DNA from: Escherichia coli
Lineage (GTDB): Bacteria > Pseudomonadota > Gammaproteobacteria > Enterobacterales > Enterobacteriaceae
DNA length: 64,000 bases
Assembly (NCBI RefSeq): GCF_009931435.1
Contig: NZ_CP043414.1
Direction: 5' to 3' (one strand)
Part shown: positions 1 to 29,325 of the stretch, piece by piece
Numbering within the stretch: the first letter of the stretch is position 1
How the letters are laid out: every line of letters begins with the position of its first letter
Program-made: the position numbers and the translations under genes
The notes under the pieces: model-generated
What the model saw: only the letters and a program-made list of their open reading frames with translations
Databases searched by the model: none
What the model was told of the DNA's origin: nothing

Positions 1-2546
1 TCCAGCGCCGCGCGCATTTTCTCCTGACGTTTGGCATCGTAACGCTTCAGGCGAATCAGCGGTTCAATCAGACGTGAAGCCACCTGCGGGTTACGGCTGT
101 TGAGGTCGGTAAGCATTTCCACCAGGAACTGGTAACCGCTGCCATCTTCGGCATGGAACGCTGCCGGGTTGCTGCCCGCAAACGCGCCAATCAACGAACG
201 AATGCGGTTCGGGTTGCTCATGGTAAATGAGCGATGCTGCAACAGACCACGCACCGTCTCCAGCACATTCGCCGCCGGGCTGGTGGCTTGCAGGATAAAC
301 CATTTATCCATCACCAGACCATCCTGATGCCACTTGTCGTCGTACTCCTGCATCAGCGCGTCACGGCATGGCAGCTGTGCAGCAACCGCCGCAGAAAGCG
401 CGGCCAGCGCATCGGTCATATTGTTTGCTTCATGGAACTGCTTGCTTACCAGCACGTCAGCCAGATGCGTTTCACCAAAAGCGAGGAAGCGCAGGCAGGC
501 ATTTCGCAGAGTGCGTTTTGCAATATCTTCATGCTCAACGCGATACTCGCTCTGGTAATTCGCGTTGTAAATAGCCAGCAGCTCATCCGCCAGTTCAGTC
601 GCCAGAGTACGGGTGAGTGCTTCACGCACTTCGGCAATAGCAATCGGATCGATGATATCGAACAGTTCTGCCATTTCATTGACGGAAGGCAGCGTCAGAA
701 TTTCTGCCGCCAGCGCCGGATCAATCCTCTCATCGAGCAGCACCGCGCGGAAAGCGTCAGCCACATGCACCGGCAGAGACAGCGGCTGCCCTTGCTGATG
801 ACGGGCGACGTTGAGCTTGATGTAGGTTGCCAGCAGGCTTTGCGCCGCATCCCAGCGGGAGAAATCATTACGCGCATGACGCATCAGGAAGGTCAGTTGC
901 TGATCGCTCCACTTATATTCCAGTTTCACTGGCGCAGAGAATTCGCACAGCAGTGCGGGCACCGGCTGGAAGTAGACATTATCAAAGACAAAGGTCTGTT
1001 CCGCCTGGGTGACGTTCAGCACCGAATTCACCGGGTGACCGCCTTTCTGCAACGGGATCACTTTGCCTTCGTTGTCATACAGTTCGATGGCAAACGGAAT
1101 ATGCAGCGGCTGTTTTTCTGCCTGATCCGGCGTAGCAGGCGTGCGCTGGCTGATGGTCAGGGTGTACTGCTCGGTTTCCGGATTATAGTCGTCTTTGACG
1201 GTCACAACCGGCGTACCGGACTGGCTGTACCAACGGCGGAAATGGGAGAGATCGACATTTGACGCATCTTCCATCGCCTGAACAAAGTCGTCGCAGGTTG
1301 CCGCACTGCCATCATGGCGCTCGAAATAGAGCTGCATCCCTTTCTGGAAGTTTTCTTCGCCCAGCAGAGTGTGGATCATGCGAATCACTTCCGCGCCCTT
1401 CTCATAAACGGTCAGGGTGTAGAAGTTGTTCATTTCAATAACCATATCCGGGCGGATCGGGTGCGCCATCGGGCTGGCATCTTCCGCAAACTGCAACCCG
1501 CGCATGGTGCGCACGTTGTTGATACGGTTTACTGCGCGGGAACCAAGATCAGAGCTGAACTCCTGATCGCGGAACACGGTTAAGCCTTCTTTCAGGCTGA
1601 GCTGGAACCAGTCGCGGCAGGTCACACGGTTACCGGTCCAGTTATGGAAATATTCATGACCAATAACGCGCTCAATATCGAGATAATCTTTATCGGTCGC
1701 GGTATCGGTGCGCGCCAGTACATACTTAGAGTTAAAGATGTTAAGACCTTTATTCTCCATTGCGCCCATATTGAAGAAATCCACCGCGACGATCATATAG
1801 ATGTCGAGGTCATACTCCAGGCCGAAGCGTTCTTCATCCCATTTCATGGAGTTTTTCAGCGAGGTCATCGCCCATGGCGCACGATCAAGATTGCCGCGAT
1901 CGACGTACAGCTCCAGCGCTACTTCGCGACCAGAACGCGTGGTGAAGGTGTCGCGCAGTACATCAAAGTCACCTGCCACCAGCGCAAACAGGTAGCACGG
2001 TTTCGGGAACGGGTCCTGCCATTGTACCCAGTGGCGTCCATTTTCCAGTTCGCCTTGCGCAACGCGGTTACCGTTGGAAAGCAGGAACGGGTATTTGGTT
2101 TTATCGGCAATAATTTTGGTGGTAAAACGCGCCAGCACGTCCGGGCGGTCGAGATAATACGTAATATGGCGGAAACCTTCGGCTTCACACTGGGTGCAAA
2201 GCGCATCGCCTGACTGATAAAGCCCTTCCAGCGCAGTATTCGCCGCTGGGCTAATTTCATTAACGATCTTGAGCGTAAAACGCTCCGGCAAATTACTGAT
2301 GACCAGTGCGCCCTCTTCTTCTTTCCAGGCGGTCCACGTCTCATCATTAATATGAACAGAAACCAGTTTAAGATCTTCGCCATCAAGACGAAGCGGAGCA
2401 TCTGATGCACCATGACGGACAGCCTGGCTGACCGCGGTAACGACCGTCTTTTGCGCGTCCAGGTCAAAGGTCAAGTCAATATCAGTAATCTGGTAATCCG
2501 GCGCACGATAATCGTGACGGTATTTGGCTTGTGGCTGTTGAGTCAT
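1..2546 (-). CDS. pepN: Aminopeptidase N, partial: the window begins about 22 codons before the stop, so the C-terminal end is missing
   Basis: Reverse-strand translation from the ATG at 2546 reads MTQQPQAKYRH...; the window start translates to the PepN C-terminal region (...SNPNRIRSLIGAFAGSNPAAFHAEDGSGYQFLVEML...). Not in the ORF track because the stop lies outside the window. Confidence 0.93.
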   Translation of the reverse strand, partial: MTQQPQAKYRHDYRAPDYQITDIDLTFDLDAQKTVVTAVSQAVRHGASDAPLRLDGEDLKLVSVHINDETWTAWKEEEGALVISNLPERFTLKIVNEISPAANTALEGLYQSGDALCTQCEAEGFRHITYYLDRPDVLARFTTKIIADKTKYPFLLSNGNRVAQGELENGRHWVQWQDPFPKPCYLFALVAGDFDVLRDTFTTRSGREVALELYVDRGNLDRAPWAMTSLKNSMKWDEERFGLEYDLDIYMIVAVDFFNMGAMENKGLNIFNSKYVLARTDTATDKDYLDIERVIGHEYFHNWTGNRVTCRDWFQLSLKEGLTVFRDQEFSSDLGSRAVNRINNVRTMRGLQFAEDASPMAHPIRPDMVIEMNNFYTLTVYEKGAEVIRMIHTLLGEENFQKGMQLYFERHDGSAATCDDFVQAMEDASNVDLSHFRRWYSQSGTPVVTVKDDYNPETEQYTLTISQRTPATPDQAEKQPLHIPFAIELYDNEGKVIPLQKGGHPVNSVLNVTQAEQTFVFDNVYFQPVPALLCEFSAPVKLEYKWSDQQLTFLMRHARNDFSRWDAAQSLLATYIKLNVARHQQGQPLSLPVHVADAFRAVLLDERIDPALAAEILTLPSVNEMAELFDIIDPIAIAEVREALTRTLATELADELLAIYNANYQSEYRVEHEDIAKRTLRNACLRFLAFGETHLADVLVSKQFHEANNMTDALAALSAAVAAQLPCRDALMQEYDDKWHQDGLVMDKWFILQATSPAANVLETVRGLLQHRSFTMSNPNRIRSLIGAFAGSNPAAFHAEDGSGYQFLVEMLTDLNSRNPQVASRLIEPLIRLKRYDAKRQEKMRAAL

Positions 2547-2764
2547 AAATAACCTTTAGCATCTTTTATAGAGTCTGGTGTTCAGTCTATTCCTGTTGCG
2601 TAAATCGCGCTATGCAGAATCTTCATCTTTTCAGGTACAAACGCCTTTATTGCTACATTTTTATAACATACACCGCGTAATGCCATCGACCAGAAAGGTG
2701 GCATATGGTGTGATCGGGGTTCAATAAATTGCGAAACAAGGTATACTCCAGCAGTTCCTGAAGA

Positions 2765-2782
2765 TGTTTATTGTACTAAACG
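2765..2782. promoter_or_regulatory. Candidate NadR operator (NAD box) in the pepN-pncB divergent intergenic region
   Basis: Sequence TGTTTA-TTGTAC-TAAACG is a near-perfect inverted repeat matching the TGTTTA-N6-TAAACA NAD box, about 30 bp upstream of the pncB ATG; pncB is a known NadR target. Confidence 0.55.
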
Positions 2783-2811
2783 CTCCTGTACGAGGACGCT
2801 ACTGCGCACCT

Positions 2812-4014
2812 ATGACACAATTCGCTTCTCCTGTTCTGCACTCGTTGCTGGATACAGATGCTTATAAGTTGCATATGCAGCAAGCCGTGTTTCATCACTA
2901 TTACGATGTGCATGTCGCGGCGGAGTTTCGTTGCCGAGGTGACGATCTGCTGGGTATTTATGCCGATGCTATTCGTGAACAGGTTCAGGCGATGCAGCAC
3001 CTGCGCCTGCAGGATGATGAATATCAATGGCTCTCAGCCCTGCCTTTCTTTAAAGCCGACTATCTTAACTGGCTACGCGAGTTCCGCTTTAACCCGGAAC
3101 AAGTCACCGTGTCCAACGATAATGGCAAGCTGGATATTCGTTTAAGCGGCCCGTGGCGTGAAGTCATCCTCTGGGAAGTTCCTTTGCTGGCGGTTATCAG
3201 TGAAATGGTGCATCGCTATCGCTCACCGCAGGCCGACGTTGCGCAAGCCCTCGACACGCTGGAAAGCAAATTAGCCGACTTCTCGGCATTAACCGCCGGT
3301 CTTGATATGTCGCGCTTCCATCTGATGGATTTTGGCACCCGCCGACGTTTTTCTCGTGAAGTACAAGAAACCATCGTGAAACGTCTGCAACAGGAATCCT
3401 GGTTCGTAGGCACCAGCAACTACGATCTGGCGCGTCGGCTTTCCCTTACGCCAATGGGAACACAAGCACACGAATGGTTCCAGGCGCATCAGCAAATCAG
3501 TCCGGATCTTGCCAACAGCCAGCGAGCTGCACTCGCTGCCTGGCTGGAAGAATATCCCGACCAACTTGGCATTGCGTTAACCGACTGTATTACCATGGAT
3601 GCTTTCCTGCGAGATTTCGGCGTAGAATTTGCCAGCCGCTATCAGGGCTTGCGTCATGACTCCGGCGACCCGGTTGAATGGGGTGAAAAAGCCATTGCAC
3701 ATTATGAGAAGCTGGGAATTGATCCACAGAGTAAAACGCTGGTTTTCTCTGACAATCTGGATTTACGCAAAGCGGTTGAGCTATACCGCCATTTCTCTTC
3801 CCGCGTGCAATTAAGTTTTGGTATTGGGACTCGCCTGACCTGCGATATCCCCCAGGTAAAACCCCTGAATATTGTCATTAAGTTGGTTGAGTGTAACGGT
3901 AAACCGGTGGCGAAACTTTCTGACAGCCCTGGCAAAACTATCTGCCACGATAAAGCGTTTGTTCGGGCGCTGCGCAAAGCGTTCGACCTTCCGCATATTA
4001 AAAAAGCCAGTTAA
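2812..4014 (+). CDS. pncB: Nicotinate phosphoribosyltransferase
   Basis: ORF 2764..4014; start taken at the internal ATG 2812 giving [24 protein letters not shown]..., 400 aa, matching E. coli PncB. Confidence 0.95.
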
Positions 4015-29241: not shown

Positions 29242-29325
29242 TAGTGCTTGATTACAGGACGAAACCTGCAATCTGTCAAGTAAACTCAACAAACTTCGGA
29301 ATAAAAATCCCGAAGAGTCAGAGAA

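Follow-up and report, generated by a model that had tools for sequence, protein, structure and literature searches.

A NAD box in the pncB leader as the very probable NadR operator of Escherichia coli pncB, and its overlap with the -10 element of a mapped promoter directed toward pepN

The DNA analyzed here (a stretch of 64,000 nucleotides, referred to in its entirety as the window) is E. coli chromosome. Its gene order from pepN to cydD is the same as in K-12, in reverse orientation and at ~97% identity, and the locus was matched in 5425 of 5426 complete E. coli genomes at 98 to 99.9% identity. Escherichia coli strain SCPM-O-B-8794, a GTDB species representative, showed only ~92% identity to the window over 6.2 kb, close to the values for E. 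albertii (90%) and E. whittamii (92%); on these identities, SCPM-O-B-8794 probably belongs to a cryptic lineage of Escherichia and not to E. coli proper. Elsewhere in the window, ftsK carries internal tandem-like repeats (~57320..57560 and ~58530..58565) and differs slightly in length from K-12 ftsK.

Two divergent genes, named here from the RefSeq annotation of the matching E. coli genomes, flank the region of interest. pepN, encoding aminopeptidase N, lies on the minus strand (CDS 1..2546) and is clipped by the left window edge; its start codon reads CAT on the plus strand at 2544..2546, and the translation from 2546 (-) begins MTQQPQAKYRHDY. pncB, encoding nicotinate phosphoribosyltransferase (400 aa), lies on the plus strand (CDS 2812..4014, ATG at 2812), and both NAPRTase domains were found in its product (Pfam). 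The spacer between them spans 265 bp (2547..2811). This arrangement, with start positions at 2546 (-) and 2812 (+), agrees with the 265-bp divergent pepN-pncB region described in an earlier reading made from the letters of the DNA (the sequence-only reading). A mechanical list of open reading frames began pncB at an in-frame ATG (2764..2766) inside the NAD box described below, giving 416 aa rather than 400. Since the alignments of all 80 PncB orthologues examined begin at residue 1 of the protein read from 2812, and since the mapped leader begins at 2754, position 2812 was taken as the true pncB start; use of the ATG at 2764 is unlikely, with the 5' end of the mRNA only 10 nt away and no ribosome-binding site.

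The pncB promoter was placed with published start-site maps. A consensus promoter/terminator scan of 2450..2900 made no calls, the candidate -35 included, and the maps were used instead because the actual promoters of this region match the consensus weakly. Kim 2012 (PMC3415461, Table S1) placed the K-12 pncB transcription start at 989637(-), supported by 180 reads and leaving a leader of 58 nt; the 51-mer given for this start is identical to 2704..2754 of the window, which puts the start at the G at 2754 (+). The SMRT-Cappable-seq start for b0931, 990414, is the same base in newer coordinates. A -10 hexamer, TATACT, is found at 2742..2747 (positions -12..-7 of the start), and a candidate -35 hexamer, TTCAAT, lies at 2720..2725, 16 bp from the -10 and within a conserved block at 2709..2728. 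The 58-nt untranslated leader (2754..2811) holds both the NAD box and a GAGGA sequence (2793..2797).

Several other features of the promoter and leader were recorded. The block GTGTGATCGGGGTTCAATAA (2709..2728) in the pncB -35 region is strongly conserved and holds a perfect TGTGA half-site, like half a CRP site; the second half is poor. A block in the leader, AAACGCTCCTGTACGAGGA (2778..2797), is kept even in species without the NAD box, and within it UCCU and AGGA can pair over GAGGA, the likely ribosome-binding sequence, which stands 14 nt from the pncB ATG, an unusually long distance.

Next, the inverted repeat in the leader was examined. The NAD box, a predicted NadR operator, occupies 2765..2782 (TGTTTAttgtacTAAACG) and consists of TGTTTA (2765..2770), a TTGTAC spacer (2771..2776), and TAAACG (2777..2782). 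Direct reading showed the TGTTTA-N6-TAAACG repeat of the sequence-only reading to be correct to the base. Five of the six positions pair between the two arms, the exception being the final G, where perfect symmetry would call for A. Against the published NadR operator consensus, TGTTTA-N6-TAAACA (PMC2330245), the pncB box fits at 11 of 12 positions, and it is the sole match with at most one mismatch in the 64-kb window, where 0.15 would be expected. In the 265-bp spacer, the chance expectation for such a match is ~6e-4. With respect to the mapped pncB start, the box lies at +12..+29, wholly downstream of +1 and partly within the region occupied by RNA polymerase.

A symmetric NadR matrix was built from the nadA and nadB sites and from a Proteus niaP site given in PMC2330245, with pncB excluded. 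When this matrix was run over the window, as had been proposed with the original prediction, the pncB box came out at the top, ranking first of ~64,000 positions with 17.4 bits. This score was attained somewhere in 11 of 200 simulated 64-kb sequences (5.5%). The nadA, nadB, and niaP sites themselves scored 25.6 to 30.6 bits, and the pncB box thus falls ~8 to 13 bits below the sites used for training, which points to a weaker operator. A second matrix match in the window, TGTCAAGTAAACTCAACA (29274..29291, in the rpsA-ihfB spacer), scored 14.6 bits, which is chance level, and was set aside.

Positive controls were taken from K-12. The nadA gene has TGTTTAGCATATAAAACA, with 1 mismatch, just upstream, and nadB has a perfect match, TGTTTAGTAAATTAAACA, just upstream, together with a weaker second copy; the K-12 pncB site is identical to the box in the window. 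Upstream of K-12 nadR, where an autoregulation site was sought, there was no NAD box with 2 or fewer mismatches. A TyrR box (TGTAAA-N6-TTTACA), compared by eye, differs from the repeat at 5 positions and was rejected.

The regulator that would bind this site is present nearly throughout the species: a full-length nadR was found in 5424 of 5426 E. coli genomes (the gene lies outside the window), and in the K-12 protein an HTH_3 domain (residues 7 to 59) precedes the adenylyltransferase and kinase domains. NadR is reported to repress pncB in both Salmonella and E. coli (PMC12421817, PMC5343134), and every nadR-mutant line from the long-term evolution experiment shows significantly raised pncB expression (bioRxiv 10.1101/2021.01.12.426406). 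The pncB NAD box itself was described for E. coli and Salmonella by Penfound and Foster 1999 and by Gerasimova and Gelfand 2005 (cited in PMC2330245). The box is therefore an already known feature, and its locus, sequence, and regulator are the same as those described previously, with no difference in the operator.

Conservation was assessed within E. coli and across Enterobacteriaceae. Of 5425 E. coli genomes, 5423 carry the 34-mer around the NAD box without any change. Relatives of PncB were then scanned, with one genome per species, yielding 80 Enterobacteriaceae loci. In 73 of these, the pepN start upstream of pncB could be placed by a pattern search, with a pepN-pncB distance of 254 to 387 bp in 70 of the 73 and of more than 1.1 kb in two Superficieibacter loci. 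Identical NAD-box half-sites were found at -47 or -46 of the pncB ATG in 54 of the 80 species, and the entire 18-mer was identical in 46 of the 54. Variation among the 54 was confined to spacer positions 2771 and 2773, leaving 16 of 18 bases fixed; because possession of the box defined this group, the constancy of its half-sites there is circular and is not independent evidence. The spacer TAC (2774..2776) had no role in that choice, and it is invariant in all 54 species and agrees with the inner GTA/TAC found in the nadB and niaP sites. The whole pepN-pncB spacer is well conserved, with 26% of columns invariant among box-bearing species.

The remaining 26 species had 3 or more mismatches: 3 to 6 when the interval -60..-35 was searched, or 4 to 8 when the 18-mer was anchored on a conserved ACG. 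None of the 80 species had a box with 2 mismatches at this position. Such a distribution, in which the site is either intact or wholly replaced, is the pattern of a functional site. Box-less species were found in Klebsiella, Raoultella, Trabulsiella, Atlantibacter, Mangrovibacter, Franconibacter, Siccibacter, Superficieibacter, and Pseudescherichia. These species retain the leader block GGAAACGCTCCTGTGAGAGGA farther downstream as well as the pncB promoter, whose TATACT -10 is found in 79 of the 80 species. That 26 of 80 species are without the box yet keep the promoter indicates that this control is dispensable, and the patchy distribution among Enterobacteriaceae agrees with a report that NadR controls pncB only "in several enterobacterial genomes" (PMC5343134). 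The right half-site AAACG also occurs in the leader block of box-less species, so it is part of an older conserved element; the terminal G of the box, its mismatch relative to the consensus A, is probably constrained by the shared leader block AAACGCTCC.

These data bear on whether the repeat is simply a palindrome that arose by chance, the promoter region being AT-rich, and that plays no part in regulation. The figure of ~0.15 matches per 64 kb amounts to roughly ten per genome, and the simulations above show that 5.5% of random 64-kb sequences attain the matrix score somewhere. Against this stand its location in this particular 265-bp spacer (~6e-4 expected) beside a NAD-salvage gene, the identical half-sites and all-or-none distribution across species, and the agreement of an operator with published regulation. 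We consider a chance origin very improbable.

An RNA hairpin in the pncB leader, acting on stability or translation, was considered in place of a protein-binding DNA site. The repeat is transcribed (+12..+29), and a 6-bp stem with a 6-nt loop could form. However, this hairpin is weak (-2.6 kcal/mol, z -1.05), with 30 of 200 shuffled sequences folding equally well, and it does not appear when the whole leader is folded to minimum energy; the leader itself folds no better than shuffled sequences (z -0.02). In addition, the identical palindrome and spacing are found at nadA and nadB, and the stem bases never vary, so that no covariation backs the pairing. The hairpin reading was rejected on folding energy and retains very little probability.

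Next, transcription in the opposite direction was analyzed. Starts directed toward pepN were taken from Kim 2012 and from Cappable-seq (PMC4782308), which agree on four. The most distal, at 2762 (-) (K-12 989629(+)), has 5 reads in Kim 2012 and a Cappable-seq value of 39.4 with an enrichment of 5.4, and gives a 216-nt leader. The three proximal starts are at 2653 (-) (989738(+); 12 reads; Cappable-seq 59.9), at 2577 (-) (989814(+); 7 reads; 70.1; 31-nt leader), and at 2546 (-) (989845; 7 reads; 21.2). The last coincides with the A of the pepN ATG, and its presence in both data sets suggests a leaderless subset of pepN mRNA. The start at 2653 is served by an extended -10, TGtTATAAA (2660..2668, minus strand), and the start at 2577 by a -10, TAGACT (2584..2589, minus strand), each in a conserved block. 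SMRT-Cappable-seq lists a single start for full-length pepN, 990591, which is the 2577 start. A literature search on the pepN promoter gave nothing useful.

The distal start is the one that meets the NAD box. Its -10, TACAAT (2770..2775, read on the minus strand; -13..-8 of the start), lies wholly inside the box, which spans -20..-3 relative to 2762, and the start accounts for about one-fifth of pepN-direction 5' ends in Cappable-seq. The starts at 2754 (+) and 2762 (-) face each other with a 9-bp overlap of their 5' ends (2754..2762), which means that polymerase can occupy only one of the two promoters at once. The three proximal pepN starts (2653, 2577, and 2546) are at least 100 bp from the box. 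Overlap of the operator with the -10 of the mapped distal pepN-direction promoter is the addition made here: in the literature searched, we found no paper describing an overlap of the NAD box with a mapped pepN-direction promoter and none mentioning NadR and pepN together.

This overlap raises the alternative that the 18-mer is kept chiefly as the core of the distal pepN-direction promoter (-10 plus discriminator), its likeness to a NAD box being secondary. TACAAT does lie inside the box, the start at 2762 appears in two data sets, and spacer bases T 2775 and A 2774 are invariant, all as a promoter core would have it. A -10, however, needs 6 bases, yet 16 of 18 are fixed and have dyad symmetry; the fixed bases match independent NadR sites; the spacer positions that do vary, 2771 and 2773, fall inside the hexamer; and pncB is a documented NadR target. 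A promoter core as the chief reason for conservation is thus highly unlikely.

Taken together, the evidence argues that the 18-bp repeat at 2765..2782 is the NadR operator of the pncB promoter, a reading in its full form to which we assign a probability of roughly 0.93. In this reading, the match, uniqueness, position, and conservation of the site come from the present analysis, and NAD-responsive repression of pncB by NadR comes from the literature. NadR repression of pncB, as proposed in the sequence-only reading, is upheld by the consensus fit, the +12..+29 position, the conservation, and the published repression. When NAD is plentiful, NadR would bind the box through its N-terminal helix-turn-helix domain and, overlapping the downstream edge of the polymerase region, would prevent polymerase binding or escape; we infer a steric clash with polymerase as the mechanism of repression. 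Repression of pncB would mean that less of the niacin-salvage enzyme is made. As NAD falls, NadR would leave the box, and pncB would be transcribed. A single NadR dimer on the box would silence pncB and the distal pepN-direction promoter and leave the proximal pepN starts unaffected.

For pepN, the predicted consequences differ by start. From the position of the box, NadR should also block the distal pepN-direction promoter, a link between NadR and pepN that we infer, and should leave the three proximal pepN starts untouched. The stronger statement, that the NAD box also serves as the -10 region of a real promoter at the distal pepN-direction start and that NadR measurably controls this promoter, is tentative, and we give it somewhat less than even odds. 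The start at 2762 may be a by-product of the operator, because NAD boxes, being rich in A and T, have an inherent likeness to -10 elements (TAnnnT). In one ribosome-profiled evolved line, the log2 changes were +0.22 for pncB and -0.32 for pepN, neither of them significant. Any influence of the site on pepN had been left open, rightly so, and it is narrowed here to the distal start at 2762, with its -10 inside the box. If the dual role holds, NadR would repress a fraction of pepN-direction transcription along with pncB, the face-to-face promoters would compete for polymerase after NadR departs, and pepN, or the 216-nt leader RNA, would be an unrecognized member of the NAD-responsive regulon.

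Comparison with known systems places the pncB box among the NadR operators and also sets it apart from them. The nadA-pnuC and nadB operators of E. coli and Salmonella share with it the 18-bp palindrome, the inner GTA/TAC preference, and the regulator, trifunctional NadR with its N-terminal HTH, and, like the pncB box, they lie on or immediately downstream of the transcription start of a gene for NAD synthesis. The pncB box differs from these operators in having one core mismatch (TAAACG) and a nonconsensus inner left half. Its position differs as well. The main K-12 nadA Cappable-seq start, 781226 in older coordinates, is inside the nadA box (locus 1496..1513), which therefore spans -8..+10, whereas the pncB box is wholly downstream of +1 (+12..+29). 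A weak Kim 2012 start for nadA, 781272, is a different and minor start.

Face-to-face divergent promoter pairs that share one operator reportedly form a general class, that of Beck and Warren. The pepN-pncB region resembles this class in having two opposed starts, 2754(+) and 2762(-), a 9-bp 5' overlap, and one operator across both; it differs in that the partner in the pepN direction is one of four pepN starts and in that coregulation by NadR is predicted from the arrangement of the sites. The analysis thus confirms a textbook operator of E. coli NAD homeostasis, one recognizable from sequence alone, and refines it in placing the operator at +12..+29, in locating its single mismatch within an older leader block, and in uncovering the overlap with the distal -10. 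A vague question concerning pepN has become a specific one that is cheap to test.

Two arrangements among the box-less loci were also recorded. In Enterobacter sp. Ag1, a 414-aa ORF (locus 993..2237) is inserted between pepN and pncB. This locus has no proximal box but carries TGTTTAGTACTCTAAACA (locus 2304..2321), a perfect NAD box ~197 nt before the pncB ATG that adjoins a promoter-like TTTAAT-N16-TATTAT; by its sequence and placement, this box may represent an independent way of putting pncB under NadR. In Klebsiella, Raoultella, and Trabulsiella, the pepN-pncB spacer is longer (325 to 329 bp where the pepN start was located), and these genera have in common TGTTCAATATATTAAACT, at ~-155 of the pncB ATG and upstream of the core promoter, which differs from the NAD box by 2 mismatches.
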